Of a stretch of 64,000 nucleotides of DNA, positions 6,821-49,125 are shown in pieces. Below the pieces are notes generated by a model. It saw nothing but the letters and a program-made list of their open reading frames with translations, had not been told where the DNA came from and did no database searches. A program made the translations under genes and the position numbers. Location of the stretch: the NCBI GenBank assembly GCA_002404995.1, contig DHKY01000014.1, positions 72,620 to 136,619 on the forward strand, written 5' to 3'. Position 1 is the stretch's first letter, and the number at the start of each line of letters is the position of its first letter. The stretch is from Bacillales bacterium UBA4682 (lineage in GTDB: Bacteria > Bacillota_I > Bacilli_A > RFN20 > CAG-288).

Positions 6821-6886
6821 AGCGCTTACATTATATAGCCAGAATTTCTGTCATACAAGTATTTTTTTATAAAGTGAACAAAAAGG

Positions 6887-6922
6887 TAATAAGCCAATGT
6901 CATCGCATTTACTGGCTTATTA
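6887..6922. promoter_or_regulatory. Imperfect inverted repeat (TAATAAGCCAATG ... ACTGGCTTATTA) in the divergent GH16/SBP intergenic region; candidate operator
   Basis: Seen directly in sequence. It lies between the divergently transcribed 5330-6820 and 7043-8482 genes. Confidence 0.25.
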
Positions 6923-7042
6923 TTCTATATATAATCAAGGGAAATCACGAAAATATTTATTTTATAAAATTTATTGCAAGCGGTTTCTATTGGCTTTACA
7001 ATTATATTGTCGTTTTTTCACTAACTGAAAAAGGAGACAAAA

Positions 7043-8482: not shown

Positions 8483-8504
8483 ATCTGAAACGGAACAAAA
8501 GAAA

Positions 8505-8531
8505 GACCTGCCGGCAAGGCAGGTCTTTTTT
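8505..8531. terminator. Bidirectional rho-independent terminator
   Basis: Perfect hairpin GACCTGCC-GGCAA-GGCAGGTC followed by a T6 run, between convergent genes. Confidence 0.7.
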
Positions 8532-20308: not shown

Positions 20309-20950
20309 ATGAAATTTCGTCTATTCCAGGCAGAGAATAAAAATTGTCCGCTCTTTCTGCTTCACAATTATCAAGATGACGGAGAAAAGATCTTTGATTT
20401 AGCAAAAGAACTGTCCAGAAAGAATTTTGCTTTGCTCGTCATCTATGATTTCGATTGGGAAAGCCAAAGGACGCCTTGGCCAGCACCAAGCATCGGCAAG
20501 AACGGCAGTTCCTTTTCCGGACAGGCGGATGAATACCTCAGATCCTTAACCGCATCTTTGCTTCCGGAAGTCCTAAAACAGGTCCGTCCTTCCAAGATTG
20601 GAATACTTGGTTATTCCCTTGCCGGCCTTTTCTCACTTTATTCCCTTTACCGCCTGGATTGTTTTTCTTTGGCAGCAAGTGTCTCTGGCTCTCTCTGGTA
20701 TCCATCTTTCGATGAATTCGTCTTTTCTCATCAAAGGAAAAAGAAGCCGGATAAGATTTATCTTTCTGTCGGAGACAAAGAAAAGAATACTTCCAATCCG
20801 TTTCTATCGAAAGTAGAAGAAAAAACCAAGGTAATCGACGAATATTACAAATCAATTGGAATACCTGTTTTATACGAGCTCAATAAAGGAAACCATTTTG
20901 CCGATGTTTCCCTGCGTCTAGCCAAAGCAATCGCTTTCCTTCTGAAATAA
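20309..20950 (+). CDS. Alpha/beta-hydrolase fold esterase (putative esterase family)
   Basis: GxSxG nucleophile elbow GYSLAGLFS. Size and motifs fit esterase D/enterochelin-esterase-like proteins. Confidence 0.55.
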   Translation: MKFRLFQAENKNCPLFLLHNYQDDGEKIFDLAKELSRKNFALLVIYDFDWESQRTPWPAPSIGKNGSSFSGQADEYLRSLTASLLPEVLKQVRPSKIGILGYSLAGLFSLYSLYRLDCFSLAASVSGSLWYPSFDEFVFSHQRKKKPDKIYLSVGDKEKNTSNPFLSKVEEKTKVIDEYYKSIGIPVLYELNKGNHFADVSLRLAKAIAFLLK

Positions 20951-21098
20951 AACCGTCTCTTTCTTTTCCAGCATTTTATTTTCGCCATTGAAATGCAATC
21001 TAGGACAGATAATTGTCAATTTAGGAACAGTTATTGCTGAAAAGAAACCGGTTGGATTATCATGATGCAAGCGCTTACTACAAAGGAGCTCTTTTTCT

Positions 21099-23069
21099 AT
21101 GGAAAAGTCAAAAGAAAAGAAATCTGTATTTACCACCCCACTTCTATCCTCCAAAATCAAGAAAAGCGGCGTCTCCCTTTTCCCAGAAGCAGGTCTTGGC
21201 TATCTGCTTGGCCCTCTTCTCGCCTTAATCAGCAATGGTGTTGTCAACATCTGGCTCATCCAATACTGGGATAAGGTCTTAAGGCTGAAAGAATGGAATC
21301 CGCTTTTCGAGACATTAAGGCCGATCATCTCCTCGATTATTATCATCATCGGCAACCTGCTAGTCGGAAAACTCAGGGAACGGAAACCGACCTTAGCTGG
21401 AAAGGCGCGCCCCTTCATCCTATTAGGCATGCCCTTGATTGCTATTGCCTTGCTCGTCTTATTCCTTGTTCCGCTTCCGGCAGGAGCAGGAGGAACGACC
21501 TCGAATCTTCTTGCCAGTATCGTCATTGCCATAGGCTACAACCTCTACTACGCCTTGGCTTGGCCAATTTATTACACCTCTCACTCCGCTTTGGTAAACT
21601 TATCAACCCGTGACGGAGGAAAACGAGGCCTCCTCTCAACCTGTATCATGGCTGCCCAATTAGGTGCCTCGGGTGTTGCAGGCAGGGCAGGAGGAATCCT
21701 AGTCGATTTCATCGGTTTACTTCCGAAATATGTCATTACCGGCGTTGATCAGTCTTTTTCCTCGAAAAGCGACGCCCTTGCTTATGCGACAAAAGCAGGA
21801 ATATCCGCTGACAGCATCAGCGAAGTCATTTCCCCAAGCCAAGCAAACAGCAAATGGACCCTGCTTAGGATCATTAGGATTGTCTGCTTAGTCGTCGGAT
21901 GTTTGTTAGAGTATTATTTTACCCGTGAACGTATCACAGAGGAAAACATTAAATCTTCCTCTGAAAGCGAAGATCAAAGCAAAGTCAAAGGTGCCTCAAG
22001 GGCCCAGCAGAGGAAAATCTGCATTCATGACCGTTATTGGTGGCTGATCATGGTTTTCTTCTTCCTCTACCAGTTTGGAGGCCAGAGGAAAAACAATGAC
22101 AGGTCCTTCTATTCCCAGGCTATGAGTTCTGGAACAACACTATCCTCTATTATTAATACTGTCGGTGCCATTCCAACCGCCTTAGGGAGGTTGATTGTCT
22201 GGCCGATCGCCAACAAATTCTCGAAGTCAAAGTCCATCATCGGCGGGTCCGTCGTCGCTTTCCTTGGATCATTGATTGCCTTGATTTGCTTAATGCCTAC
22301 AGTTAGCACGAGCGAAGCTGCCGTCGAGGCACTCTCTGTTACATCCTTCTGTGTCAAAGCCCTCGGTGCTGCCCCGGCTAGGTATGTCTCTTTAGCCCTT
22401 TTAGCCAATGTACTAGACCATCAGGAAGCCTTATACGGAAAACGTACGGATGGCTTCACTAGGGCCGTCTATGGTTCCATCATGGTTGCTATGTCCGGTA
22501 TCTGCAACGGCATCATCGCCGGTATGAACGCGGTAACTCCTTTAGAAAACCAGAAACTCGTCCATACGATTCTCGGCTTCTTAGTCGAAGGTGTCTGCTA
22601 TCTAATTATCGCCGTCAGGTTCCTGGCAAGGAACGTCGAGAAGTTCACAAAGCTCGATAATCAGACCATTATCAACAACCAGAGAGAGCTCTGCCTCAAG
22701 GAAGGAAAAGAGTGGATTTCTCCGGAAGAGCGGGCAAAGAAGGAAGACGAAGAAAACAACAAGAGGATTGAAGAAAGTCGAATTGCTCAGCTCAATGCTG
22801 ATTGCAGCAAGAAACACCTTGATTTCGAAGCTGAAAACGCTAAGTTCTTAGCTGAAAAGAAAAAGAAGGATGAACTTGCGCTGAAGAAGAAAGAAGCGGC
22901 TGACAGGAAGAAAAAACAAGCAGAAGAAAAGAAGAAACAGAAGTTCGACTCCCTGCCTCAGGAAAAGAAGGATAAGATTCTAGCCAAGAAAGAAAAAGAA
23001 CAGCAGAAAATCGAAGAAGAGTTCTCCTCTCTGCTTCTTAAAGCAAAGAATAGCGGTCTATCCGCCTGA
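21099..23069 (+). CDS. MFS-type transporter (GPH/glycoside symporter-like) with a ~120-aa Lys/Glu-rich coiled-coil C-terminal tail
   Basis: RBS AAAGGAG. About 12 hydrophobic segments. C-terminus KKKKDELALKKKEAADRKKKQAEEKKKQKFDSLPQEKKDKILAKKEKEQQKIEEE. Confidence 0.6.
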   Translation: MEKSKEKKSVFTTPLLSSKIKKSGVSLFPEAGLGYLLGPLLALISNGVVNIWLIQYWDKVLRLKEWNPLFETLRPIISSIIIIIGNLLVGKLRERKPTLAGKARPFILLGMPLIAIALLVLFLVPLPAGAGGTTSNLLASIVIAIGYNLYYALAWPIYYTSHSALVNLSTRDGGKRGLLSTCIMAAQLGASGVAGRAGGILVDFIGLLPKYVITGVDQSFSSKSDALAYATKAGISADSISEVISPSQANSKWTLLRIIRIVCLVVGCLLEYYFTRERITEENIKSSSESEDQSKVKGASRAQQRKICIHDRYWWLIMVFFFLYQFGGQRKNNDRSFYSQAMSSGTTLSSIINTVGAIPTALGRLIVWPIANKFSKSKSIIGGSVVAFLGSLIALICLMPTVSTSEAAVEALSVTSFCVKALGAAPARYVSLALLANVLDHQEALYGKRTDGFTRAVYGSIMVAMSGICNGIIAGMNAVTPLENQKLVHTILGFLVEGVCYLIIAVRFLARNVEKFTKLDNQTIINNQRELCLKEGKEWISPEERAKKEDEENNKRIEESRIAQLNADCSKKHLDFEAENAKFLAEKKKKDELALKKKEAADRKKKQAEEKKKQKFDSLPQEKKDKILAKKEKEQQKIEEEFSSLLLKAKNSGLSA

Positions 23070-23131: not shown

Positions 23132-23485
23132 TCAGTCGAGTTCCTTCAAGGCTGATTCCACAATTTCGTATTGCGTAGTAACCTTAGCAAAAAGAGGAAG
23201 AATCTTTTCTTCTTTGAAAACACGTTCCCGTAGTTCTTCGGTCAAGTCCGATGCAGCTTGGAAAAGATTCGTGAATCCAAGGTTGCTTGCCAGTCCTTTC
23301 AAGGTATGGCTGGCAAGAAAAGCTTTTTCCACATCTTCCTCCTCGATAGCAGCCTTAAGTTCTTCATAGGTGGGATCCGTTAGGAAATGAGGAAGAATCT
23401 TCTTCCTTAGGCTTTTCGAAGCAAAACGATTAAGAACCTCAAGATAGTCTCCGCCTATCGTTGCATAGAATTCTTCGATATCCAT
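23132..23485 (-). CDS. Histidine phosphotransfer (Hpt) domain protein
   Basis: RBS GGAGGA. Hpt signature SHTLKGLASNLGF. 117 aa, all-helical composition. Confidence 0.7.
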   Translation of the reverse strand: MDIEEFYATIGGDYLEVLNRFASKSLRKKILPHFLTDPTYEELKAAIEEEDVEKAFLASHTLKGLASNLGFTNLFQAASDLTEELRERVFKEEKILPLFAKVTTQYEIVESALKELD

Positions 23486-23506
23486 ATTCGTTATCCTCCA
23501 TTATCG

Positions 23507-25441
23507 TCACTTGATTCTTCCTTGCTCGTCTTTGACAAGGAATTCCCGGATTTCGAGCAGACATTCAAGCAGCAGAGGGTTGAACTTTCCGCACTCGCCA
23601 TTCCTGATCCTGTCAATTGCCTTATCCGGAGAATAGGCCTCCTTATAAACACGTTTGGCCGTAAGAGCATCATACACATCCGCGAGAGACACCACCTGTG
23701 CGGCAATCGGTATCTCATCTCCGACTAATCCCTCTGGATAGCCTTTGCCATCATATTTTTCATGGTGGTAAAGGCAAATCTGATAGGCATATTTCACAAG
23801 CGGCTCTTTCTGGTATTCCCGTACGTTCCTAACCCTATGGGCACCATAGACCGTATGCTTCTTGACTTCCTCAAATTCTTCTTTCGTCAGTTTTCCGGGT
23901 TTATTCAGTATCTTGGAATCAATCTCGACTTTTCCGATATCGTGAAGCGCAGAAGCCGTAGCAATCAAATAGACATCATCCTTTGATAGGTTATATCGGT
24001 CCGTTTTCCGCCTAAGAGCGACAAGCAGACGTTCGGTTATCTTGTTGATATTCGTAACGTGCTCTTTTCCCCTTCCTGAACGGAATTCACTGACCTGGCT
24101 GAGGATATCCACAAGAATATGACTGCATTTTTCTTTTTGATTGTTTTCGCTGGAAACAGTGGAGAGCAGACGACGTTGTTTCTGATAAAGATGGATTGTA
24201 TTCAGTACACGCCTATAGACGACTTTCGCATCGAAAGGACGGCTGATGAAATCAGACACTCCCCTTTCGTAGGCTTTCCGAATGGTCTCCGGGGATTCAT
24301 CTTCGGTAATAGTGATAACCGGAATCTCCTCAAGAAGATGCGAGTCTGTCCTCTTCTGCAGGACACCAAAGCCATCCCTGTCAGGCCTGAGGATGTCAAG
24401 AAGAACAAGAGCAATCTCTTTTCCTTCGTTTGCAAGAATTTCAAGACACTCCTTGCCTCCCTTGGCTTCCCTGACATTGAATTCATTGCTTAAAATCGAT
24501 GAGAGAATCTCACGATTTAATGCGGAGTCATCCACAATCAGAATGGTCTGCTTATCCGGGGAAGAGGAAATCTGTATGGTATGGTCAGTAACAACTAGGT
24601 TCTTCTTTGCCTTCGCTCGGTAGAGAAGCTTATCCGCACGCCTGACTGCTTTTTCAATTGTCTGCTTTTCACTGAAGGTGGCACCTACGCTGAAAGTCAG
24701 GTTGATTTCGGCATAACCGGGGAAGATGATTGTCTTCAGGCGCTTTAAGATAGCTGTCAGCTTAGTCTCATAATTGCCTTTATCCGTTTCCGGAAGAACC
24801 AGAAGGAATTCGTCTCCTCCGTAACGGATCAGCTTGTCCCTCTTTCCAAGATCCTTCTTCAGCTCCTTCGCAAAGACTTTCAGGACATAGTCCCCTGCGA
24901 CATGGCCGTAGACATCGTTGTAGACTTTGAAGTCGTCTAAATCGATCCTGGCTACACAGGCAGAAAGAGTCGAATTCTTGATTTCTTCTTCATAAAAGCG
25001 GCGATTAAAGGCACCGGTAAGAACATCCGTATAGGTCTTCTCATAGTATTCATTGATGCGGGTGAGTAGTTTGACCTCTCCAGAAACATCAACGACATTC
25101 TTGTTGTCGAATTCACGAAGAAGTTCCCTGACACAGGGTTTGGAATCGATTTCGAGATAACGGGAGATGACAAAATAGATGCCATCCTTTGAGAACTCGA
25201 TTTTCACCTGATCCTGCTTGGTATTTATCGCCTTTGCAGAGGTACAGTTGTCGCAAGGATTCTTCTTTCCCCAAAAAGAATAGCAGGGGCAGTGCAGAGT
25301 TGCTGAATTTCCATCGGGACAAAGACCTGCAATCTCATCCTTTTTCAGAATACGGACGACATCGAAGACATTGCGGTAACTATCCCTCTCGGATTGAGCC
25401 TCAGCCTCACTTAAAGAATATGTTTTTTCTTTTTCAGTCAT
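23507..25441 (-). CDS. c-di-GMP signalling protein with domain order Cys-rich N-terminal region, GGDEF, REC, HD-GYP
   Basis: RYGGDEF active-site motif. Receiver ILIVDDS...LLDILRPDRDGF. HD-GYP motifs HDIGK and HHEKYDGKGYP. N-terminal CPDGNSATLHCPCYSFWGKKNPCDNC. RBS GGGAGG. Start overlaps the end of the kinase gene by 8 nt. Confidence 0.8.
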   Translation of the reverse strand: MTEKEKTYSLSEAEAQSERDSYRNVFDVVRILKKDEIAGLCPDGNSATLHCPCYSFWGKKNPCDNCTSAKAINTKQDQVKIEFSKDGIYFVISRYLEIDSKPCVRELLREFDNKNVVDVSGEVKLLTRINEYYEKTYTDVLTGAFNRRFYEEEIKNSTLSACVARIDLDDFKVYNDVYGHVAGDYVLKVFAKELKKDLGKRDKLIRYGGDEFLLVLPETDKGNYETKLTAILKRLKTIIFPGYAEINLTFSVGATFSEKQTIEKAVRRADKLLYRAKAKKNLVVTDHTIQISSSPDKQTILIVDDSALNREILSSILSNEFNVREAKGGKECLEILANEGKEIALVLLDILRPDRDGFGVLQKRTDSHLLEEIPVITITEDESPETIRKAYERGVSDFISRPFDAKVVYRRVLNTIHLYQKQRRLLSTVSSENNQKEKCSHILVDILSQVSEFRSGRGKEHVTNINKITERLLVALRRKTDRYNLSKDDVYLIATASALHDIGKVEIDSKILNKPGKLTKEEFEEVKKHTVYGAHRVRNVREYQKEPLVKYAYQICLYHHEKYDGKGYPEGLVGDEIPIAAQVVSLADVYDALTAKRVYKEAYSPDKAIDRIRNGECGKFNPLLLECLLEIREFLVKDEQGRIK

Positions 25442-28400
25442 CCTCTTGACCTCCCTCTACCGATTTCTTCTTCAAACAGGAGTTCAAGGTGTTCTTAAGG
25501 ACATCCCTATGGATAGGCTTGGCGATATGGGCATTCCTTCCCGCATCTAAGGCATCCTGTACATCTTTTACAAAGGCACTTGCCGTCCTTGCGATGATTG
25601 GGATTTCCTTGGCCTCTGGATGATTCGAATCACGGATTGCTTTTGTTGCTTCATATCCGTTCCTGCCAGGCCTCCTGACATCCCTGAGGATAGCGTTGTA
25701 CGTTCCTTTCTTAGAAGAAAGGAATTTCTCTACGACCTGTTTTCCATCCTTGGCAACATCTGCCGTTGCTCCTTCGGATTTCAATAGCTCAAGGGCAATC
25801 TCTGCATTCAGATCATTATCCTCTGCAATCAAGAAATGCCTTCCCTTCAAGTCAAAGACAGTATCGTCTTCGGAAACCGAATTCTTAAAGCGCTCGACTT
25901 CAATCAGCTTTTCCTTAAGGTTGACTTCACTGAAAGGCTTGGCAAGGAAGCCATCGATGTCGATTTCAAGCGCCTTTGTTTCAATATCCGTCCAGTCATA
26001 AGAGGTGAGGAAGAGAATCGGAGTATCTACCGGAATAATCTTCCGGATTTCCTTTGCCGTATCAAGTCCGTTCCTGCCTGGCATCTGCCAGTCCAGAATG
26101 ACAGCATTGTATTCTTTTTTCTCAGCGTAACGTTCCTTCACAAGCTCGACAGCAGCTTTACCACTATATACAGCATCAAAAACGACGCCCGTATCAGACC
26201 TATTTTCCTTAATACCGTCACAGACCGATTTTTCATCATCTACAAGAAGAATCCGGCTCCTATGATGGTTGTGCCAGAAATCCTTATCTTCTTCCTCATG
26301 GGTAAGATGAAGGGATAATTCGACCGTAAAGGTTGTACCTTTACCAAGTTCACTCTGCAAATCAATCGTTCCACCCCTAAGGTCAATAATGTTCTTGGTG
26401 ATTGCAAGACCAAGACCGGTTCCGGATTCCTTGTTCGTAGTAGAATTCTCAGCCCGGGTAAAAGGATCAAAGATTATCTTCTTGAATTCATCTGAGATGC
26501 CATAACCATTATCCGTAACAACAAACCGAAGTCTTTCAAAGGACTGAGAACTCTGCCCTAAATCGGTAATCTGAAGTCCGATTTGTCCGCCTTCCGGAGT
26601 ATACTTGATGGAATTAGAAAGAAGATTAATCAAAATCTGATTGATACGGGTCTTATCTCCCATGAATAACTCATGGGACCTGACACCGACATTGATTCTC
26701 AGTTCCTGCTTTTTCGCATTGGCCATCGGGCGAATGACAACATTGACCGATTCGATGAGCTCATCTAAAGAGAAGGCAGACTGACGGATTGTCCTTTTTC
26801 CGCTCTCAATTTTAGAAATATCAAGGATGTCGTTGATTAGTCCGAGAAGATGGTTGCTCGCTGCCGTGATCTTCCGGGAATACTCTTTCACTTTTGTCTC
26901 ATCCCCTGTGTTTTTAGACAGAAGGGTCGAGAACCCAATGACGGCATTCCTTGGCGTACGGATATCATGGCTCCTGTTGGAAAGGAAGGTGGTTTTCGCC
27001 TTATTGGCTTCTTCCGCAACTTGCAGAGCCTCAGAAAGCTGTTCATTATGTACCTTTTCAAGTTTATTCTTCTGTTTTGAATAATAAACAATGAAGAATA
27101 TAACAATTCCTGCAATTAAGATAAGGACGGATGCAAGAATTGCAGCTGCTTGCAAAGGATTGCGTTTCCTGAACAATAGAAGTGAACCAGAATTCTTATG
27201 AATGTTTGCCTCGCTAATATACTTAGATAAATCCGACTCTGAAATGCTAGCAACATAGCTGTTAAGAGAAGCAAGAACATTGGTATTGATATCACGGGAT
27301 ACTGGAATTGTGACATTGACAGTCTGTCCAGGAACAAGACTTGTGACCAAGGAACTTCCGGTTTCATAAATATAGTACTGCCTAGAATCCCGCGTTCCAA
27401 AAGCGATATCCGCTTTTCCCTTTTCAACCGCCTGCAGACAGGCTCTGGAATTATCACAGAGAATAACTTCTTCATAATCACTGGTCGAATATTGCTCTTC
27501 CCTTCCTCGGACAATGGCAATACGGCTGGCTTTGCCATCACTATCTGGTCTCTGTGCAAAAGAAAGGACAGAAGTCAGGATTGGAGCACTGTTAATATAT
27601 CCGAATTTCGAACACCTAGAAGAAGTCATGTTCCTTCCTAAGAAGAAGGCAAATTCTCCAGAGTCGAGTTTTCCTTCCGCATCCGTCCTATCGGAAGCAA
27701 AGGTGTATTCCGTCTTGATTCCTGTTCTTTGGCAATAATCATCAAGAGCGGATACAAGGACCCCTTTGGGCTTGCCATTATCCTCATAAGCATAAGGAGC
27801 TGTGTTTTCCCTGCAGAGGACCTTCAGTTTTCCGATATTGCTTAGTTCCTTTTCCCTCTCATCGCTCAAAAGGAAAGTGTTGTTCGCTACACGAAAATAG
27901 GTATCATAGAGTGTATCTTGGAAGTTGGGATTGACCTCGTCTATCCTTTTCCTGGCCTCATCCAGCTTCTGAATCAGTCCTGTGTTCCCCTTGGTAGAAG
28001 CAAAATAATAAGGGCGAGGGGCAAAGTTAGCAACGATTCTAGTGTTAGCAATGGGAGAAAGGGATACACTGGAAATAACATCCACTTTTCCATCAATCAA
28101 AGCCTGCTTCTGCTCATCTGCGGTCTTATAATACACAATCTCGTAATTCAGTTTTTCCGAATCAAGATAAGAGAGAACTTCTCCGTTACGAGTGGCTGCC
28201 GATTCCCATAAACCAACTTTGATTAACGCTTGACCGTAAAGATTATGTTCTCTTAGCCCGTTTGTCTTTAGAGCGCAAAGAGTCGTATAAACAGTTCCAT
28301 AGCTTCTCTGAGGAAATTCAAAGTTTTTCTCAGTGCCAGAGTTCTTAAGCAGCGGACCTAGAAGGTCGACTTTCCCTTCTTTAAGATCCGAAAGTGCTTT

Positions 28401-28715
28401 GCCGACAGCCTCGTTTCCGTCTGAGCTTCCATAAGGTACATATTCCATCTGCCAGCCTGTATATTCAGAAATTTTCTCAAGATAATCATAATTGTATCCA
28501 GTCACCTTTCCGGAATGACCGAAGAAGCTCCTTCCTTCCTGGGTAGGAAAGGCAACACGTATAATCGTTCTCTGTTCTTTGTCTTTTTGCTTTAAGGCAC
28601 TCTTTTCCTCGAATAACACATGAGTAGGATTCATTGGTTTAGAAAAAGAAGCAGAAAACAGCATCAAAATAGCAGAAAATCCCAAAAGCGTTCTTATTTT
28701 TCTCTTTAACGACAT
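25434..28715 (-). CDS. Hybrid sensor histidine kinase: two periplasmic solute-binding (Venus-flytrap/SBP_bac_3-like) domains, TM, HisKA, HATPase, REC, REC
   Basis: Signal peptide. TM AAAILASVLILIAGIVIFFIVYY. H-box SHDIRTPRNAVIGFSTLL. G-boxes GTGLGLAITK. Two receivers (RILLVDDE...VILDWQMPGRNG and HFLIAEDND...ILRDVRRPGRNG). Confidence 0.8.
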   Translation of the reverse strand: MSLKRKIRTLLGFSAILMLFSASFSKPMNPTHVLFEEKSALKQKDKEQRTIIRVAFPTQEGRSFFGHSGKVTGYNYDYLEKISEYTGWQMEYVPYGSSDGNEAVGKALSDLKEGKVDLLGPLLKNSGTEKNFEFPQRSYGTVYTTLCALKTNGLREHNLYGQALIKVGLWESAATRNGEVLSYLDSEKLNYEIVYYKTADEQKQALIDGKVDVISSVSLSPIANTRIVANFAPRPYYFASTKGNTGLIQKLDEARKRIDEVNPNFQDTLYDTYFRVANNTFLLSDEREKELSNIGKLKVLCRENTAPYAYEDNGKPKGVLVSALDDYCQRTGIKTEYTFASDRTDAEGKLDSGEFAFFLGRNMTSSRCSKFGYINSAPILTSVLSFAQRPDSDGKASRIAIVRGREEQYSTSDYEEVILCDNSRACLQAVEKGKADIAFGTRDSRQYYIYETGSSLVTSLVPGQTVNVTIPVSRDINTNVLASLNSYVASISESDLSKYISEANIHKNSGSLLLFRKRNPLQAAAILASVLILIAGIVIFFIVYYSKQKNKLEKVHNEQLSEALQVAEEANKAKTTFLSNRSHDIRTPRNAVIGFSTLLSKNTGDETKVKEYSRKITAASNHLLGLINDILDISKIESGKRTIRQSAFSLDELIESVNVVIRPMANAKKQELRINVGVRSHELFMGDKTRINQILINLLSNSIKYTPEGGQIGLQITDLGQSSQSFERLRFVVTDNGYGISDEFKKIIFDPFTRAENSTTNKESGTGLGLAITKNIIDLRGGTIDLQSELGKGTTFTVELSLHLTHEEEDKDFWHNHHRSRILLVDDEKSVCDGIKENRSDTGVVFDAVYSGKAAVELVKERYAEKKEYNAVILDWQMPGRNGLDTAKEIRKIIPVDTPILFLTSYDWTDIETKALEIDIDGFLAKPFSEVNLKEKLIEVERFKNSVSEDDTVFDLKGRHFLIAEDNDLNAEIALELLKSEGATADVAKDGKQVVEKFLSSKKGTYNAILRDVRRPGRNGYEATKAIRDSNHPEAKEIPIIARTASAFVKDVQDALDAGRNAHIAKPIHRDVLKNTLNSCLKKKSVEGGQEDD

Positions 28716-29981: not shown

Positions 29982-30341
29982 TCATTCCATTATTTTCTTT
30001 TTCGAATTCTTTATTCTGATGATGAAGAATACAAGTTGGATAGACTCAGCAATCAAAGACAGAGCGAAGAAAACCAATCCCACAAAAGGAATATAGGACG
30101 GATATCCAATCAGGAGAACACAACCAAGAATTCCGATTCCGGTTCCAAAGAAGGATAAGAAGGAAAACTTAGTGAACATTCCTGCAGCGCCAAATGCAAC
30201 AATCAAGAAAGAAGCAGATAAAATCGTCGACCACAGCTCGACATAACCAATAATCCTAGCCCGCCTGAATTCACCAAGGCATGCAAGAATCAAGGAGATA
30301 AAGACACTCCAAGAAATCAGTTTTTCTTTTTTCATAATCAT
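29982..30341 (-). CDS. Small integral membrane protein (hypothetical)
   Basis: 119 aa with 3-4 hydrophobic helices. Start overlaps the stop of the upstream esterase gene (ATGA). Confidence 0.45.
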   Translation of the reverse strand: MIMKKEKLISWSVFISLILACLGEFRRARIIGYVELWSTILSASFLIVAFGAAGMFTKFSFLSFFGTGIGILGCVLLIGYPSYIPFVGLVFFALSLIAESIQLVFFIIRIKNSKKKIME

Positions 30342-31288
30342 TTGAAGAAACGAAGCAGAGAATTATAGAGTCCGACTCTCCAGCTTCTTGCCGAATGGTA
30401 TCCCCTCCGGACTTTGACGTATTCGGTATTCTTATCCGTAAAAATACGGCTGGAATCACTCAGAAGCTCGTTAACCATTTTGCGATGTCCATGGTAAGCA
30501 AAATCATAGATTCCGTCTGCGTTGAACCTGTAGTTCAGCTTATAATTCTTGAATTCCGGACTTGTCAGCGAGGAAATGATTTCCGTGCTGTTCACCGAAG
30601 AAGAATAGCATCCGAAATAGGAGAAATAATCAAAGCAGTTGATCCTTCCGGCATTAAGAGTCAATCGGCAGCCATTGGATAAACCAGCAATAGCCCGGTG
30701 ATCACGGCTTGACGACAGTCCGAGTTTATCCTGTGTCACACTATAGGTAGCATATTTTGCCTCAACCGAAGGAACGATATCGTATCTAAGTTCACTGATG
30801 AAATTCTTATTCGAGTTTTCCTTTACTGGAGAGTAATCCTTTATATTCTTGATATTGTCGTCTCCAAACAAGCCATAACTGTAGAAGGTCGGACAGACAA
30901 CGATAAGAGGATCAATGACTTTATAATAAATCAGATTATCCAGCCTTACTCTGGCTTTTATGTTTTCAAGCCAGGTATCGAGATGATTCACGCTCTGTTT
31001 ATCTGTTCCATGAAGCAGATAAAGGATATTGTATTGAGTCCCGCTGTCATACCCATAAGGAAGGTACACAGCGCACTTTTTTTCCTCTTTACGCCCAGAG
31101 TTGAATACATAGTCCTGGGTTTCATAGGAAAAAGTCTCAACATTCCCTTTCTGTTCACTCCGTTCGCTAAGGTATTTTTTGTCAACTTCCACATCCGTGA
31201 TTTCTGCCTCTCCTGAAGCAGCATGACAGGAAGTAAGAAAAAGTGTGAACAGAAGGACCGACGAGGTCAGCAATTTGTTCTTAACCAT
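30338..31288 (-). CDS. Secreted esterase-family lipoprotein (alpha/beta hydrolase)
   Basis: RBS GGGAGG before MVKNKLLTSSVLLFTLFLTSC lipobox. LLHGTDKQSVNH and GxSxG-like AGLSNGC. The ORF is open upstream to 31345, but that would overlap the terminator. Confidence 0.5.
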   Translation of the reverse strand: MVKNKLLTSSVLLFTLFLTSCHAASGEAEITDVEVDKKYLSERSEQKGNVETFSYETQDYVFNSGRKEEKKCAVYLPYGYDSGTQYNILYLLHGTDKQSVNHLDTWLENIKARVRLDNLIYYKVIDPLIVVCPTFYSYGLFGDDNIKNIKDYSPVKENSNKNFISELRYDIVPSVEAKYATYSVTQDKLGLSSSRDHRAIAGLSNGCRLTLNAGRINCFDYFSYFGCYSSSVNSTEIISSLTSPEFKNYKLNYRFNADGIYDFAYHGHRKMVNELLSDSSRIFTDKNTEYVKVRRGYHSARSWRVGLYNSLLRFFK

Positions 31289-31302
31289 ATTGGCCTCCCT
31301 AT

Positions 31303-31343
31303 AAAAACGAGAAGGATCCGCCTGAAAAAGCGGATCCTTTCTC
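31303..31343 (-). terminator. Rho-independent terminator after the cassette-1 small membrane protein gene
   Basis: Hairpin AAGGATCCGC-CTGAAAAA-GCGGATCCTT with a U-rich tract on the minus strand. Confidence 0.6.
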
Positions 31344-31354
31344 ATTGAATCGTA

Positions 31355-31771
31355 TTATTCTTTTACCGGAACAGGCTTCTTCTTGGAATATCCAAGGCTG
31401 AAGGCAACCGCTGCAAGAATGACAGCAACAAAATCGAAGATCCAGAAGAGGAAGAAGAGAGCATCAAAGGAATTGCCATCGACTCCGAAAGCAACATTGG
31501 AGATGAAGAGCCTTTCGGTGTTGAGTAAAACAGCAATCGACACCGCATAGAAGACAACTGGAAGGATTCCTAAGATTCCGAAATCCTTAAAGAGGCAGAG
31601 AAGAGTTGTAACAAGTCCTAAGACAATCCTGACAACCGCGACAGGAGAAACCGGAGAAAGGTAGTTTCCGCCTCGTGCTGTGTAGAAAATCAAAGTAAGT
31701 AATCCGCAAAGGAGAGAAGCGAGGGAAAGATAGAAGCCTTTGCCTTTGGAAGCTAGGAATTTCTTCAACAT
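31355..31771 (-). CDS. Small 4-TM membrane protein (cassette 1), paralogous to 48573-49016
   Basis: RBS AAAAGGAGG lies inside the GH3 3' end, giving near-contiguous stop/start. Shares TARGGNYLSPVSPVAVV (copy 2 has TTGYFAGNTPDAAVV) and a 4-TM topology with the copy-2 protein. Confidence 0.55.
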   Translation of the reverse strand: MLKKFLASKGKGFYLSLASLLCGLLTLIFYTARGGNYLSPVSPVAVVRIVLGLVTTLLCLFKDFGILGILPVVFYAVSIAVLLNTERLFISNVAFGVDGNSFDALFFLFWIFDFVAVILAAVAFSLGYSKKKPVPVKE

Positions 31772-31772
31772 A

Positions 31773-34772
31773 CTAATTATCCTCCTTTTTACCAGCAATC
31801 CTGTTATAGATGATTAATCCAAGGGATGCAGCAGCAAGAACACTGAAGACAGATGTCAAAGCGATGAGGGTGTTATCATACCAAGTATTGACCTGGACAA
31901 TCTTGCTCGAAGAGGTAAGACCGTTCCTAGCAGCAGAATTGGCAAAGACATAAAGCTGACGATGAATTGCTTCACGCCTGTTGGACCTAAGCTTATAGTC
32001 CTTGGTAATATCGATACCCTGTAGATACTTGGCAAAGCCGGTTCCGGAAGTGCAGAACCTAGTAGTACCGGCTTCATAGGCAAGCTGAGGTTCCCTTAAG
32101 GAGCCCTGCTTCTGTCCGAAGTCCGTTGTAACAGCGCCTTGGAATCCCCATTCCTTTTCCCTGACATTCTTCCAGAGATTGGAATGATGGCCGGTCCAGA
32201 CAAGTCCCAAACGATTGAATGCACCCATGACAGCAGTGCAGCTCTTATCTTCTTTTCCCGTCGTTTCGAAAGCATATTGGAAGGCACGGAGATAGACTTC
32301 ACGGATAGCCTGCTCATTGGAGAAAGTGCAGACACCGATACGGTTGGTTTCCTGATCGTTGAGGAAGAAGTGTTTGAGATAAGGAATCGTTCCCTTGCCC
32401 CTAGCACCCTTGACCTCAGCTTCGCAGAGCTTTCCGGCAAGGAAACCGTCTTCGGAATAGTACTCGAAGTTACGGCCTCCGCAAGGAGTACGATGCGTGT
32501 TGGCAGCCGGGCCATACCAGCCGACTCCTCCGCCCCAGAGTCCTTCTTCGCCGAAGGAATCGCCGACTTCATTGGTCAGGGTTACATTCCAGGTACCGGC
32601 AATGATAGTCTCAGTCGGATATGAAACCATCAGTTCATCAGTCTTCTTGACATTCTCGGCATCATACTGCTTTGTATAGTCTTCGATGTAATTGGATTTT
32701 GTCCAAGCAGACGGGCCATCGACCGCAGTGGTAGCATTGAGTCCGACGGATTCCCTCTTATTACGTCCCTGAGCAGTTGAGGAATAATAGTCATCAAGGG
32801 TAAGCTGGTCCAGAAGCTTATCCCAGTTCTCGTTGTCATAATCAGCACCGATCATCCTAGCCAGCGTGTATTTCTTTTCGGCTCCGGTAGTGATAGAAGA
32901 GGTGTCACTGCTTCCCTTTTCATAAGCAGAAGGAGAAGTGGTTCCATCCGTCTTTTCCGAATAATAAGAAGCGATTTCCTCTAACCTCTTATTATTTGCT
33001 GAAAGATTCTTGACACCAGTTGGATAGGTTCCGTTCCAGTCCTTACGAGAGAGATAAGTGATCTTCTGGTCGCTGTCTCCAACATAATAGTTCAGATCAG
33101 TGGAATCGAATTGATTGGTAATCGTTGCATTGTTTCCGCTTAAACGATACTCATCCTTATCGAAAGATCCTTTTGTGAATTTGCGTGCTTTGGAAGCGTC
33201 GCCAGCAGCATCCATTCTGGCTTTCTGAACTCCATCCACCTTGGATTCCAGAATGTTGTTCAAGGCTTCGTGGGTTCCATTGCCGATGGCAAAATAATAA
33301 TCACCCTGCTCTAAGACATAAGTCTTGCTGTTGGTATAGTCGTAGCTGGCTAAATCTGAAAGAGAGACATCAATCGTCACTTTCTCAGACTGTCCAGGAG
33401 CAATCAAGCCGGTTTTCGCAAAGCCGACAAGCTGAATTGCACTCTTCTCGATGATTCCAGATCCGTAGGGAGCCTGGGCATAGAGTTCAACGACATCCTT
33501 GGCAGAGTAATTCGTAGAATTGTTCTTCACCGTGACTGTTGCTTTGGCTGTCTTGTTGTTCCAATCGACCTGCCTATCATCCAAGGTCTGAGTAAAGGTG
33601 GCATAGCTTAAGCCATAGCCAAAGGGGAACTGGACTTCCTCGTTGTAACGCCAGTTGCCTTTCGATACAACAGCACCAGCCTTAGAATCGGAATTTCCTC
33701 TTCCTAAGACATAATCCTCGTAACGGGTTTCAAAGTAACGGTAACCGACATAGATACCTTCCTGATAGACGAGATACTTACGGGAATCGGGGTTGACGAT
33801 ATCATCCTTATTTGCATAATCGAAGTTTCCGAAGTTCCTCATCGAAGGATTGGCTTCCACATCATAAGCATAAGTGTCCGCAAGATGTCCGCTCGGGCAG
33901 GTCTTACCGACTAAGATATCAGTTACAGCATCAAGTCCGACTTCGCCCGGACCGCCGATATAGAGGCAGCTATCGATATTGTATTCATCGAGGAAGCCAA
34001 GTTCCGGAGTATTGAAGGTATTGACTAAGACAATGCGCTTCTTAAACGGCCCGTTTTTCCTTTCTTCCAAGACAGACTTCTCTTCATCCGTTAAGGATAA
34101 GTAATCGGATGTAAGGTCAGTGCCTTCGCCGCCGATTCTTGTCAGGACAAAGACAGCAGCATCGGAATAGTCGTTATAGGAGGCTTTCCTATCCGAATCG
34201 AATTCCGAGGCATTGATTTCATTGACTTGGTTGATGACACGGAAATTCAGTGTCTTGCCAGTCCAACCAGTCTTTTCGATGAAGCCTCTCTTCTCGTCGT
34301 AATTCTTTTTATAGAAATCGTAGATAGTCTTGTTGATTTCAATCTTATCCTGGCAAGCCTTGAGCAAGTCCCTCTTCCGCTCTTCGCTGGAAGTGACACC
34401 ACCGCTTCCGGTTCCTCCAAGAGCTAAGTCGACCTGATTATATCCGAAGAATGTGACCTTAGCCTTTTCGTTGAGCGGTAAAGCATTATTTTTGTTAGTC
34501 CTTAAGACTGTTCCTTCCGCCTGGACCTGTTTTGCGACATCCCGCGCATGATTCCTAACGGATTTATAGTCAGAATAGTCGCTCTTATAGTGAATAGGAT
34601 TTTCGTTTCCGTCTCCGGTTTCAATAATCTTCGTTGAACTGATGTTGAGGAATTTGTTGATGTATCCGGACCACTCCTTGGTGACTGCAATTCCGCCGAT
34701 AGATGCGGAGAGAAGGATAGTCGATGCGGAAAGGATTGCACGCCATAATCCGGTTCTGCCGATTTTCTTCAT
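31773..34772 (-). CDS. Membrane-anchored glycoside hydrolase family 3 with permuted domain order (cassette 1)
   Basis: RBS AAGGAG. N-terminal signal/anchor and C-terminal TM LIALTSVFSVLAAASLGLIIY. The GH3 C-terminal-type domain (FPFGYGLSYATF) precedes the TIM-barrel motifs (RTPCGGRNFEYYSEDGFL, KHFFLNDQE, GFQGAVTTDFG). Confidence 0.75.
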   Translation of the reverse strand: MKKIGRTGLWRAILSASTILLSASIGGIAVTKEWSGYINKFLNISSTKIIETGDGNENPIHYKSDYSDYKSVRNHARDVAKQVQAEGTVLRTNKNNALPLNEKAKVTFFGYNQVDLALGGTGSGGVTSSEERKRDLLKACQDKIEINKTIYDFYKKNYDEKRGFIEKTGWTGKTLNFRVINQVNEINASEFDSDRKASYNDYSDAAVFVLTRIGGEGTDLTSDYLSLTDEEKSVLEERKNGPFKKRIVLVNTFNTPELGFLDEYNIDSCLYIGGPGEVGLDAVTDILVGKTCPSGHLADTYAYDVEANPSMRNFGNFDYANKDDIVNPDSRKYLVYQEGIYVGYRYFETRYEDYVLGRGNSDSKAGAVVSKGNWRYNEEVQFPFGYGLSYATFTQTLDDRQVDWNNKTAKATVTVKNNSTNYSAKDVVELYAQAPYGSGIIEKSAIQLVGFAKTGLIAPGQSEKVTIDVSLSDLASYDYTNSKTYVLEQGDYYFAIGNGTHEALNNILESKVDGVQKARMDAAGDASKARKFTKGSFDKDEYRLSGNNATITNQFDSTDLNYYVGDSDQKITYLSRKDWNGTYPTGVKNLSANNKRLEEIASYYSEKTDGTTSPSAYEKGSSDTSSITTGAEKKYTLARMIGADYDNENWDKLLDQLTLDDYYSSTAQGRNKRESVGLNATTAVDGPSAWTKSNYIEDYTKQYDAENVKKTDELMVSYPTETIIAGTWNVTLTNEVGDSFGEEGLWGGGVGWYGPAANTHRTPCGGRNFEYYSEDGFLAGKLCEAEVKGARGKGTIPYLKHFFLNDQETNRIGVCTFSNEQAIREVYLRAFQYAFETTGKEDKSCTAVMGAFNRLGLVWTGHHSNLWKNVREKEWGFQGAVTTDFGQKQGSLREPQLAYEAGTTRFCTSGTGFAKYLQGIDITKDYKLRSNRREAIHRQLYVFANSAARNGLTSSSKIVQVNTWYDNTLIALTSVFSVLAAASLGLIIYNRIAGKKEDN

Positions 34773-34921: not shown

Positions 34922-36214
34922 TTAAGCGGTTACATTGGCATCTTCTGGAAGTGGGAAGATGATATCTGCATTATAAATATCGTTTTCCTTGTAGAAACGG
35001 ATGTTCCCGTTGTATTTTTTCACAATGTAGCAAATGCTCTTCACACCGAAGCCGTGATATCGGTTGTCGCCCTTGGTTGAAAGAGGAAGTCCGTCCTTGA
35101 ACTGGACAGGAGTATTGCAATAGTTTTCGATGTGGACAGAGATGATATGTCCTTTCTGGCTGATCTTAAGAAGGATAAAACGCTGCTTTACATCCGTTAC
35201 TTTTTCCTCGTATTCAATCGCGTTATCCAATAGATTTCCAAACAAGGAAGTCAGATCGCCTATTCGAAGGAAACCCAAAAGGTCTTCCTTTACCATAATA
35301 TAAAAAGGAATATTCCGGCTATTGCAGATATAAGTCTTCTCACTGAGGACAGTATCAAGGGCTTTGTTTCCGGTCTTTGGAGAGCATTCGTATTCGTTGA
35401 CCGTTTTCTCTAACTCGCTGAGTTCTTCTTCGCTCCTGTTCCCACGTTCCTTGAAGTCGTTGATGAAATGCTTCAGATCGTGGGCTTTCCTGTTGAGGAC
35501 ATCGATATTGTTCTTTACCGATTCATAATACTTGTCGGATTGGTTGATGAATCGTTCCAGATAGATGTTCTCATTCACCTTGTTCTTATAGCCAAGGAGT
35601 CCGAACTGAAGCATGAGAGAAATGACATCGCAGAAGACAAGTGGAAGACGGGTGACCCAGAGTCCGTCGATTTCATAGACCTGAAGAAGGAACTGGAGAA
35701 GGTAACAGAACCTGGCTGAGAAGATGGCAATTGGAAAGACGCCCCCTCCTTTCAGAGTAACTCCTTTGGAAAGATCACTGAAGCGATAAATAATAAAACA
35801 ACAAAGTCCATAGACAACCAGCCTGACACTGACAGAAAGAAAGAACCACCCAATGGAATTAATCTGGTTTTTGAAAGGCAGGTAGATCAGGTTCTCGATA
35901 TTATGGGAAAGATTCTGGATTAGCTGAGCTCCGACACAGCAGAAGAGAAGATCTTTCAGCTTGTTTTCGAAGCAGATAATCAGTCCCAGGAAGGAGAGGA
36001 GGAATATGGTAATCGATGACAAGCCTTGAATGACTTGGTTTAAGAGGTTCGTCAGCCTGACGGAGCAGATTGCGTAGAGGGCAAACGTAATGACAGCAAG
36101 CAAAACGAAGTGTTTCCGTCTTTTGAAAAAAGGAACGAAAAGAAGCTCCGCAAAGAATATCTGGAGAATATATCCGTGAGAGGAATGAAGGACAAAAAGT
36201 TCAGACAGACTCAT
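34922..36214 (-). CDS. AgrC-like (HPK10, GHKL) membrane sensor histidine kinase (cassette 1)
   Basis: Polytopic N-terminal domain. H-box NRKAHDLKHFIN. N-box GNLLDNAIEY. G-box HGFGVKSICYIV. Start overlaps the RR stop by 4 nt. Confidence 0.75.
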   Translation of the reverse strand: MSLSELFVLHSSHGYILQIFFAELLFVPFFKRRKHFVLLAVITFALYAICSVRLTNLLNQVIQGLSSITIFLLSFLGLIICFENKLKDLLFCCVGAQLIQNLSHNIENLIYLPFKNQINSIGWFFLSVSVRLVVYGLCCFIIYRFSDLSKGVTLKGGGVFPIAIFSARFCYLLQFLLQVYEIDGLWVTRLPLVFCDVISLMLQFGLLGYKNKVNENIYLERFINQSDKYYESVKNNIDVLNRKAHDLKHFINDFKERGNRSEEELSELEKTVNEYECSPKTGNKALDTVLSEKTYICNSRNIPFYIMVKEDLLGFLRIGDLTSLFGNLLDNAIEYEEKVTDVKQRFILLKISQKGHIISVHIENYCNTPVQFKDGLPLSTKGDNRYHGFGVKSICYIVKKYNGNIRFYKENDIYNADIIFPLPEDANVTA

Positions 36215-36918
36215 AGTTTCTCTCCGAAATACTTCGTCAGCTCATTCAGGAAAGAGGCCTTATACACTCGGCTGAGAGGCAACGCCTCTGTTCGGATAAA
36301 GACCTCGCTGTTATTGAAGTTATCAACATACCGCAGATTCACAAGAAGGGAACGATTGATTTCGGAGAAGCCCTGTCCCTTAAACCTGTCTTTGATACTA
36401 TCCATCGATCCCCGCCTCCGATAGGTGTTGTTCTCCAGATGGAAATAAAGATAATGCTTATTGCTTTCGATATACCTGATATCCGGAATTCTCACCTTGT
36501 GGACTTCGTTGGAAGAACTGATGACAATAGATTTTTCTTCCTCTTTTCCAATATGGGAAAGGAATTTGTTCCTCTTAATACGGAACAATTCATAGTCCAT
36601 CGGCTTGATCAGGAAATCATAGGCGTTCACTTCGTACCCATCGACAGCATACTGTACCCTCTCAGTCAAAAAGACCAGGCAAACATCCTTATCGACTTCC
36701 CGGAGCTTCTTCGATGCTTCGATTCCGTTCCTTTCCGGCCTGGCCACATCCATGAAGATAAGACTCGCATCACCTTTATATTTCGAAACAAAATCTGCCC
36801 CGTTCCGGAAATAAGAAACGGAAAAGGAAACTTTGTTCTCTTCCTGATAACGGGCAAGATAATTCCGGATCAAATCAATCCATTTTTCCTGGTCTTCAAC
36901 GACTGATATTTTAATCAT
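36211..36918 (-). CDS. LytTR-family response regulator (cassette 1)
   Basis: Receiver MIKISVVEDQE...FMDVARPERNG plus a C-terminal LytTR domain (IRYIESNKHYLYFHL...). No SD sequence. An extended -10 TGTGTTATAAT sits 6 nt upstream of the ATG. Confidence 0.8.
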   Translation of the reverse strand: MIKISVVEDQEKWIDLIRNYLARYQEENKVSFSVSYFRNGADFVSKYKGDASLIFMDVARPERNGIEASKKLREVDKDVCLVFLTERVQYAVDGYEVNAYDFLIKPMDYELFRIKRNKFLSHIGKEEEKSIVISSSNEVHKVRIPDIRYIESNKHYLYFHLENNTYRRRGSMDSIKDRFKGQGFSEINRSLLVNLRYVDNFNNSEVFIRTEALPLSRVYKASFLNELTKYFGEKL

Positions 36919-45333: not shown

Positions 45334-45428
45334 TTTTCTGTCCGAAAATGGCACAAAGTCAAGCGCTTACATTTGGAAATGGTATTGTTTTCTTGCTCCG
45401 AAAGCCCTTTCTTATCGTCAAGGGCTTT
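45334..45428 (+). promoter_or_regulatory. HK2-GH3 intergenic region with two imperfect direct repeats (ATTTTTCTGTCCGAAAA and ATTGTTTTCTTGCTCCGAAAG, 54 bp apart) sharing the TTTTCTTGC core with cassette 1, then a stem-loop AAAGCCCT...AGGGCTTT
   Basis: Seen directly. The hairpin has a weak U-tract, so it may be an attenuator or partial terminator. Confidence 0.35.
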
Positions 45429-45448
45429 TGGAAGAAAGGAACAAACAA

Positions 45449-48571: not shown

Positions 48572-48572
48572 A

Positions 48573-49016
48573 ATGATGGCTAAACTGAAATCAAAGCTGA
48601 CCCTTCGCAACATTCTTCTTCTCTCTTCTGTCGTCATGCTCATCGTCGGATGGATCATCTATCTTGTTGTTGCCACTACGGGATACTTTGCCGGCAATAC
48701 GCCAGATGCCGCCGTCGTGACTCTCAGCATCTTCTACATTCTTATCGCTTTAGCCTTCATCTCCTTTGATGACAAGCTTCAGAAGTTCGATACGCTTTTC
48801 TTCTTCACGTTAGCCGCTTTCCTCATCTTAGCCTTTGTCTTCTTCGTCTTAGACAAGGAGGAAGTCATCGGCGATAGGTTAATTCCAGTCAACCATCCTC
48901 AGAAAGAAGTCGAAGCAGTCGGTGCTTCCATCACTGGAATCGTCTTCTATCTTCTCAGCATCATTCTCTTAATCGTTTCTTCCTTCTTATCCTTCAAGAA
49001 GAAAGCAGCAGAATAA
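48573..49016 (+). CDS. Small 4-TM membrane protein (cassette 2)
   Basis: RBS AAGGAGG within the GH3 3' end. ATGATG start 2 nt after the GH3 stop. Paralogous to 31355-31771. Confidence 0.55.
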   Translation: MMAKLKSKLTLRNILLLSSVVMLIVGWIIYLVVATTGYFAGNTPDAAVVTLSIFYILIALAFISFDDKLQKFDTLFFFTLAAFLILAFVFFVLDKEEVIGDRLIPVNHPQKEVEAVGASITGIVFYLLSIILLIVSSFLSFKKKAAE

Positions 49017-49028
49017 AAGAATCAGCAA

Positions 49029-49062
49029 AAACAGCAGGGGCATCGCTCCTGCTGTTTTTTAT
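49029..49062 (+). terminator. Rho-independent terminator after cassette 2
   Basis: Hairpin ACAGCAGG-GGCATCGCT-CCTGCTGT followed by a T6 run. Confidence 0.75.
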
Positions 49063-49082
49063 TATTCAAATTTGGCTATTAA

Positions 49083-49121: not shown

Positions 49122-49125
49122 TATT

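Follow-up and report, generated by a model that had tools for sequence, protein, structure and literature searches.

A kinase–enzyme–Hpt operon from a Bacillales genome in which AGG appears to be read as methionine: a possible phosphorelay into a c-di-GMP enzyme of GGDEF-REC-HD-GYP architecture

In a 64,000-nucleotide stretch of Bacillales bacterium UBA4682 (assembly GCA_002404995.1, contig DHKY01000014.1; hereafter the window), we analyzed a minus-strand operon of three genes at positions 23132–28715, which encodes a hybrid sensor kinase, a putative cyclic di-GMP (c-di-GMP) enzyme of the domain order PAS(3Cys)-GGDEF-REC-HD-GYP (REC, receiver) and a stand-alone histidine phosphotransfer (Hpt) protein. 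The reading that we favor, and to which we give about an even chance of being correct, is that the operon constitutes a multistep His-Asp-His-Asp phosphorelay feeding a bifunctional c-di-GMP enzyme with two inputs. Its components are all of known types, and the composite is an uncharacterised variant, not a new signalling principle. The features concerned are given below, with residue numbers referring to the respective protein; the key residues cited have unambiguous codons throughout, except M457 of the enzyme, which is encoded by AGG.

23132–28715, minus strand: operon of three genes (hybrid kinase, PAS(3Cys)-GGDEF-REC-HD-GYP enzyme, Hpt), from open reading frames (ORFs), gene junctions and Shine-Dalgarno sequences.
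25434–28715, minus strand: hybrid sensor histidine kinase, 1093 aa, assigned by Pfam; NCBIfam matches cover the kinase core only.
27876–28568, minus strand: solute-binding (Venus-flytrap) domain 1 of the kinase, residues ~50–280; best SBP_bac_3 stretch at 63–260, with matches to AncQR (4zv1) and BvgS (4q0c).
27201–27848, minus strand: solute-binding (Venus-flytrap) domain 2 of the kinase, residues ~290–505; second SBP_bac_3 stretch, with a match to the second flytrap domain (VFT2) of BvgS (3mpk) at 297–501.
27081–27152, minus strand: predicted transmembrane helix of the kinase, residues ~522–545, by Kyte-Doolittle hydropathy.
26310–26999, minus strand: HisKA (H583, codon CAT, in the SNMSHDIRTPMN H-box) and HATPase_c core of the kinase, by Pfam.
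25905–26252, minus strand: kinase receiver 1 (D826 D827, D875, T904, K926), Pfam Response_reg at 822–937.
25485–25835, minus strand: kinase receiver 2 (E965 D966, D1012, T1044, K1066), second Response_reg stretch.
23507–25441, minus strand: PAS(3Cys)-GGDEF-REC-HD-GYP protein, 644 aa, from Pfam, alignments and an AlphaFold2 (AF2) model.
25088–25420, minus strand: N-terminal PAS-like domain of the enzyme, residues 8–118, with C53-x9-C63-x2-C66 (and C51); no Pfam or NCBIfam model applies.
24602–25033, minus strand: GGDEF diguanylate cyclase domain (RYGGDEF; I-site absent), from alignment to PleD and invariant columns.
24215–24550, minus strand: receiver of the enzyme, residues 298–409 (D304 D305, D349, T379; R401 in place of the conserved Lys), from Pfam, alignment and codons.
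24098–24229, minus strand: predicted continuous helix, residues 405–448, from the receiver to HD-GYP (AF2 full-length model).
23552–24097, minus strand: HD-GYP phosphodiesterase domain, residues 449–630 (H461, H500 D501, H529, H559 H560, D588, GYP; M457 in place of the third-metal Glu), from alignment to PmGH (4mcw) and PA4781 (4r8z).
23132–23485, minus strand: stand-alone Hpt protein, 117 aa, with H60 in SHTLKG, by Pfam Hpt.

The ORF listing gave exactly three minus-strand ORFs, at 25434–28715 (1093 aa), 23507–25441 (644 aa) and 23132–23485 (117 aa), which are the three contiguous genes named in a previous reading made from the sequence alone (hereafter the sequence-only reading). The stop of the kinase gene overlaps the start of the enzyme gene by 8 nt (ATGACTGA), with a GGAGG located 8 nt upstream, and the Hpt gene, which carries its own GGAGG, follows the enzyme gene after a gap of 21 nt. 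The translational coupling previously assumed for the operon is thus borne out by the overlap at the kinase/enzyme junction, but the gap at the enzyme/Hpt junction does not amount to coupling, strictly speaking. Since the neighboring genes are one for RNase III, in divergent orientation, and one for an MFS_2 transporter, in convergent orientation, the operon is self-contained, and an independent assembly (L091) carries it in identical form. Promoter and terminator scans around the operon performed no better than on shuffled sequence. A plasmid origin of the operon was also considered and rejected, as megablast against PLSDB returned no match.

With respect to the relay, the phospho-accepting residues are all intact, namely H583, D875 and D1012 of the kinase, H60 of the Hpt protein and D349 in the receiver of the enzyme. 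The product of the third gene, for which an identity as a 117-aa Hpt protein had been suggested, indeed scores above the Pfam cut-off (PF01627, 34.8 bits against 24.6), and its H60 (HTLKG) is conserved in the orthologues compared. In 9 of the 11 assessable distinct relatives (the window itself, L006, L007/8, L003/13, L009/10/16, L014, L015, L021 and L004/5/18), the enzyme gene is directly followed by an Hpt gene, an arrangement which supports the His-Asp-His-Asp relay. Hence, the intact phospho-acceptors together with the Hpt synteny sustain the earlier view that the three genes are parts of a multistep phosphorelay. Hybrid kinases flank the enzyme-Hpt pair in most relatives, and these kinases differ between lineages. 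Hpt genes and hybrid kinases were likewise found beside plain REC-HD-GYP genes (L028, L030–32, L035, L050 and L060), including Lachnospiraceae and proteobacterial loci, and at one further locus (L036, 1102 onward) a single gene encodes a fused Hpt-REC-HD-GYP protein.

Pfam confirmed all the domains that the sequence-only reading had assigned to the three proteins. In the enzyme, GGDEF (137–280, 107 bits), Response_reg (300–409, 63 bits) and HD_5/HD (467–614, 93 bits) were detected, and the RYGGDEF, HDIGK and HHEKYDGKGYP motifs are all present in unambiguous codons, in line with the proposed GGDEF, internal receiver and HD-GYP domains. Neither catalytic domain was found to be degenerate, as the catalytic residues are largely intact on alignment to PleD and PmGH.

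Considering the C-terminal half, residues 297–630 share 35–46% identity with many stand-alone REC-HD-GYP proteins, and in the AF2 full-length model, which was built on the standard translation and thus carries Arg at AGG positions, receiver helix alpha5 continues as a single 44-residue helix (405–448) into HD-GYP. The linker between GGDEF and the receiver (289–294), on the other side, is short, non-helical and of low confidence in this model, and its length varies across the family. These alignments and the predicted helix favor a reading in which the receiver is the N-terminal regulatory part of a REC-HD-GYP unit of the RpfG type. The previous argument that the internal receiver is an oddity, receivers normally being N-terminal, does not apply in this light, since the receiver is N-terminal to HD-GYP. 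D349 and the D-D-D-T receiver pocket are invariant in the family, and the position of the beta5 Lys is taken by R401 (CGT, 24239–24241, minus strand). In HD-GYP, seven of the eight metal ligands of PmGH (equivalents of H189, H221, D222, H250, H276, H277 and D305) as well as HHExxDGxGYP and RxxK are conserved. The eighth, the partially conserved third-metal ligand E185 of PmGH, corresponds to M457; an equivalent Glu is kept by 48 of 63 stand-alone relatives and by the Ruminococcus branch but has been lost in the sub-clade of the window. This Glu separates trinuclear from binuclear HD-GYP sites and correlates, imperfectly, with GMP rather than pGpG as the product (10.1101/2021.11.05.467447).

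Turning to the N-terminal half, alignment to PleD showed that GGDEF, the metal-binding Asp (D327) and the equivalents of N335, D344, R366 and K442 are present and are invariant in 35 family members. PleD R446 falls opposite a Lys, with a gap of one residue in the alignment (AKAK-KN against AKASGRN), and this Lys, K280, is invariant in the family. The GGDEF domain looks catalytically competent. At the RxxD of the I-site the window has GKMD and its two closest relatives GKSD and ESED; since most other family members keep RxSD, product inhibition appears to have been lost in the sub-clade of the window.

Residues 1–125, which the sequence-only reading had overlooked, are conserved and contain a Cys cluster. 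Searches of 24 members against Pfam (including PocR) and NCBIfam for a known family covering this N-terminal domain gave nothing at E ≤ 1. A sensitive search, in turn, recovered the three-Cys domain in at least 616 representative clusters. Among ten proteins sampled, the domain is located directly upstream of GGDEF in nine and attached to an AraC helix-turn-helix domain in the tenth; its contexts include REC-Cys-GGDEF and the permuted order REC-HD-GYP-Cys-GGDEF (P0193, L019 and L079). The two halves of the enzyme are modular, as the permuted relatives keep the receiver by HD-GYP and the Cys domain by GGDEF. Conservation over 150 diverse representatives is 99% for each of C53, C63 and C66, 91–96% for W57, N65, R30, K80, E82 and E106, and only 44% for C51. 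The PAS domain of NreB, which binds [2Fe-2S] via Cys63, Cys66 and Cys78 in a CX2CX11C motif (PMC13478379), offers a parallel, since the enzyme likewise has at its N-terminus a PAS fold whose three conserved Cys occupy similar positions in the sequence. It differs from NreB in its Cys spacing (C-x9-C-x2-C instead of C-x2-C-x11-C) and in its output, which is GGDEF here and a kinase in NreB. By analogy, the three-Cys PAS-like domain possibly binds a metal or iron-sulfur (Fe-S) cofactor.

For the kinase, Pfam returned HisKA (573–639, 51 bits), HATPase_c (686–802, 94 bits) and two stretches of Response_reg (136 bits), and each of the two receivers has a complete pocket (D875/T904/K926 and D1012/T1044/K1066). 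The periplasmic structure of BvgS (4q0c) aligns across both lobes of the sensor (residues 71–501; E 1.2e-4). Hydropathy analysis indicated one strong transmembrane segment at ~519–545 (19-residue windows exceeding 1.6 only at 519–531) in addition to an N-terminal signal-like segment, and ~28 residues separate the transmembrane segment from HisKA. The proposed layout of two solute-binding domains, one transmembrane segment, HisKA/HATPase and two receivers was thereby recovered in full. NCBIfam matches were confined to the core and all fell far below the equivalog cut-offs. Orthologues of the kinase comprise ~80 clusters at 57–65% identity. Receiver 2 shares 77% identity with a protein encoded by a stand-alone REC gene that immediately precedes the enzyme gene in L010 (72–431); the equivalent gene in L009 (9532–9951) encodes 139 aa. 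Because the REC gene is separate in L009 and L010, fusion of receiver 2 to the kinase would be lineage-specific, and this comparison suggests a branch or sink role for kinase receiver 2.

From the gene order, domain content, residue conservation, synteny and modularity described above, we infer the direction and sign of phosphotransfer, the two enzyme activities, the cofactor and the ligand in the following manner. A small extracellular solute would bind to or leave the two solute-binding domains and alter autophosphorylation at H583. The phosphoryl group would then travel from H583 to D875 and/or D1012 of the fused receivers, to H60 of the Hpt protein and to D349 of the enzyme, where receiver phosphorylation would act via the long helix and mainly regulate, most likely activate, c-di-GMP hydrolysis by HD-GYP. 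HD-GYP is the expected target because the receiver belongs to an RpfG-type unit with a long helix leading to HD-GYP, and the analogy with RpfG-family enzymes, whose phosphodiesterase (PDE) activity depends on receiver phosphorylation (10.1101/2021.11.05.467447), points to activation. Devoid of the third-metal Glu, HD-GYP would be of the binuclear type, and its product may be pGpG rather than GMP. The GGDEF cyclase, lacking its I-site, would be gated separately by the N-terminal PAS-like domain, whose three invariant Cys would probably hold a metal or Fe-S cofactor reporting the intracellular redox, O2, sulfide or metal state. The net c-di-GMP output would in this way integrate signals from outside and inside the cell.

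Several observations weigh against this model. Among stand-alone REC-HD-GYP relatives, 45 of 63 have Lys at the R401 position, against Arg in 18 of 20 proteins of the GGDEF-REC-HD-GYP type, and the K109R exchange in CheY permits phosphorylation and blocks activation (PMC3203184); receiver coupling may therefore be non-canonical. The AF2 monomer has a pTM of 0.46, and inter-domain contacts are not established by it. With NreB there is no sequence match in Pfam/NCBIfam at E ≤ 1, in addition to the different Cys spacing. At the level of gene neighborhoods, two relatives, L011 and L017, carry the enzyme gene without Hpt or kinase beside it (the L012 sequence being too short for a call), the enzyme homologue in Ruminococcus likewise has neither partner, and the commonest kinase orthologues are orphans, with neither enzyme nor Hpt alongside; a small ORF following one orphan orthologue (L094) is not an Hpt. 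Since the commonest kinase orthologues are orphan and the enzyme of some relatives lacks Hpt or kinase, the pairing of kinase and enzyme is lineage-specific. Going by synteny, the complete kinase-enzyme-Hpt operon is thus a lineage-specific arrangement, of which the enzyme-Hpt pair is the conserved core.

The sequence-only reading had proposed that a single phosphorylation of the central receiver toggles the enzyme between synthesis and degradation, for instance through receiver dimerisation that unites the GGDEF domains and at the same time changes HD-GYP activity. A single intact phospho-acceptor pocket indeed lies between two catalytic domains that both appear competent, the central-receiver domain order is conserved across the family, and the family-specific Lys-to-Arg exchange could reflect a receiver specialised for dual output. 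On the other hand, the short, non-helical, low-confidence linker of variable length between GGDEF and the receiver, together with the permuted proteins, in which the receiver stays with HD-GYP and the Cys domain with GGDEF, speaks against such reciprocal control. Given that GGDEF already has a dedicated sensor of its own upstream and that the receiver is tied to HD-GYP by a helix, a toggle is conceivable but not the most economical explanation, and we consider it unlikely. The existence of only one working enzyme domain appears somewhat less likely still, either as a net PDE that employs GGDEF as a GTP or allosteric sensor or as a net cyclase in which the binuclear HD-GYP does no more than bind c-di-GMP or trim pGpG. 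This is suggested by the loss of the third-metal Glu in the sub-clade (M457), by the Lys at the position of PleD R446, by the existence of inactive RpfG-family forms and the variable products of Glu-less HD-GYP domains (10.1101/2021.11.05.467447) and by the database name of the family, which is simply 'diguanylate cyclase'. It is countered by conservation in both domains: GGDEF, the metal-binding Asp and the residues equivalent to N335, D344, R366 and K442 do not vary in the family, and HD-GYP retains seven of its eight metal ligands as well as GYP and RxxK. This conservation argues for selection on both active sites.

The Arg-bearing receiver might finally serve as a sink for phosphate or as a module for constitutive dimerisation, with the kinase and Hpt signalling mainly to a regulator encoded elsewhere, which we regard as quite improbable. 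Such a role would agree with the uncoupling of phosphorylation from activation by Lys-to-Arg exchanges in CheY and CsrR, with the mostly orphan state of the kinase orthologues and with the occurrence of kinase receiver 2 as a separate single-domain REC in relatives, as expected for sink-type branches. It is less compatible with the invariant D-D-D-T pocket, with the position of Hpt, which consistently adjoins the enzyme gene rather than the kinase gene, and with the lack of any other candidate regulator in the 64 kb, except for a separate LytTR pair. Overall, we therefore retain the phosphorelay into a two-input c-di-GMP enzyme as our preferred reading.

Among known systems, the operon most directly recalls RpfC/RpfG of Xanthomonas, in which a hybrid kinase likewise signals via Hpt to a receiver located directly N-terminal to an HD-GYP phosphodiesterase. 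RpfC has a receiver and the Hpt domain fused to it, whereas Hpt is encoded by a separate gene here, and the kinase of the window has two extracellular solute-binding domains and two receivers. Compared with RpfG, the regulator carries an additional PAS(3Cys)-GGDEF module, has Arg in place of the receiver Lys and lacks the third-metal Glu. On sequence criteria, it agrees with the RpfG family in REC-HD-GYP order, metal ligands and GYP and departs from strict membership by its extra domains and the Lys-to-Arg exchange, so that the operon can be viewed, by analogy, as RpfC/RpfG logic with its parts distributed differently. The kinase resembles BvgS/EvgS in its two tandem extracytoplasmic solute-binding domains, single transmembrane segment, kinase core and receiver, and differs from them in lacking both a PAS domain between transmembrane segment and core and a fused Hpt and in having a second receiver. 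The NCBIfam EvgS model reached 161 bits, its cut-off being 1995, and matched no more than the kinase/receiver part. Orthology to BvgS was rejected on these grounds, as the sensor architecture alone is shared, the similarity is weak (E 1.2e-4) and the EvgS model stays below its cut-off. A further parallel is found in Anabaena, where the two-receiver hybrid kinase of CdgKA-CdgSHA acts on the receiver of a c-di-GMP phosphodiesterase by way of a postulated Hpt (10.64898/2026.09.11.750938). Both systems thus connect a two-receiver hybrid kinase via Hpt to the receiver of a c-di-GMP enzyme; Hpt is only postulated in Anabaena but encoded within the operon here, and the enzyme domains differ, with GGDEF and HD-GYP present in our case.

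The full four-domain architecture at ~640 aa is represented by at least 120 protein clusters, one of which has 13,829 member sequences, and includes Ruminococcus proteins of the GGDEF-REC-HD-GYP type that are named 'diguanylate cyclase'. The sandwiched receiver, previously called unusual, therefore belongs to a common architecture. The accompanying statement that such c-di-GMP circuitry is not widespread in low-GC Gram-positives is contradicted for clostridia by a survey in which HD-GYP emerged as their predominant c-di-GMP hydrolase (10.1101/2021.11.05.467447). No experimentally characterised GGDEF-REC-HD-GYP protein was found in the literature searched, which is not proof of absence. One orphan relative of the enzyme (L017, 740–2668) has Ala at the position of D305 and Lys at that of R401; it adjoins a gene for a 521-aa family-2 glycosyltransferase (3267–4832), which hints at an exopolysaccharide output.

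Within the window, the GGDEF, HD-GYP, Cys-PAS and Hpt models matched this operon only. The only other receiver belongs to a REC-LytTR regulator paired with a GHKL (HATPase_c_5) kinase (34922–36918, minus strand). A glycan-utilisation neighborhood (5330–10989, 20309–23069, 30338–34772 and 45428–51534) encodes GH16, GH94, two GH3 and a GH2 protein, two esterases, SBP_bac_1 and an MFS_2 sugar transporter. These neighbors may hint at the kind of solute sensed by the kinase.

As indicated above, M457 is encoded by AGG. Judged by codon usage and alignments, AGG encodes Met, not Arg, in the window, which matches the known reassignment in UBA7642 (RFN20, Bacilli), and its occurrence at conserved Met positions and as the dominant Met codon is as described (PMC8629427). 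Under the standard code, motifs that nearly always contain Met are read with Arg (SNRSHDIRTPRN, DVRRPGRNG and DILRPDRDG, all with AGG codons), both Met of the kinase H-box are AGG codons, and the 644-aa enzyme contains 17 AGG codons and not a single internal ATG. For an alignment of the three proteins with distant homologues that use the standard code, AGG was masked by X. Under these conditions, the residues opposite the masked AGG were Met (29%), Leu (16%) and Ile (11%), with Arg outside the six commonest; as a comparison, CGT stood opposite Arg in 49% and ATG opposite Met in 38%. Met formed the majority in 13 of 31 AGG columns and Arg in one. Across 42 ORFs of the window, AGG and internal ATG occur at 18.7 and 5.9 per 1000 codons, the sum of which (24.7) equals a normal Met frequency.

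Only one relative, L006 (88–90% identical), shares the AGG-Met pattern. In relatives of 71% identity or less, Met is encoded by ATG, and any AGG is found mostly in Arg/Lys columns and never in a Met column. At residues 410, 477 and 613 of the enzyme (24212–24214, 24011–24013 and 23603–23605, minus strand), AGG stands at positions that standard-code relatives fill mostly with Arg, Lys or Gln, as in VVY[R/Q]RV; these may be ancestral AGG-Arg codons that were captured by the reassignment and are now Met, or they may reflect residual ambiguity. No tRNA genes, including tRNA-CCU, were found in the window. The nearest genomes are those of uncultured gut Bacilli. A public protein (P0271) is 100% identical to the table-11 translation of the kinase, and deposited sequences of this organism accordingly carry Arg at every AGG-encoded Met. 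Reading AGG as Met changes 27 residues from Arg in the kinase, 17 in the enzyme and one in the Hpt protein. Heterologous expression without AGG-to-ATG recoding would consequently introduce Arg at these 45 Met positions, among them those in the kinase H-box and in the active-site loops of the receivers.

As for the wider meaning of these findings, proteins of the GGDEF-REC-HD-GYP type are abundant in gut Firmicutes, and the operon supplies a genetically linked input path, consisting of kinase and Hpt, for studying how a fused cyclase/phosphodiesterase is controlled. The three-Cys domain may, as a tentative and on balance doubtful proposal, represent an undescribed PAS-like sensor family in which Cys-bound Fe-S or metal gates the cyclases of anaerobes by O2, redox or sulfide; combined with an Arg-type receiver and HD-GYP, one polypeptide would then set c-di-GMP from an extracellular solute and intracellular redox. 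As this domain is widespread, not covered by existing models and nearly always wired to GGDEF, identification of its cofactor would annotate hundreds of protein families.

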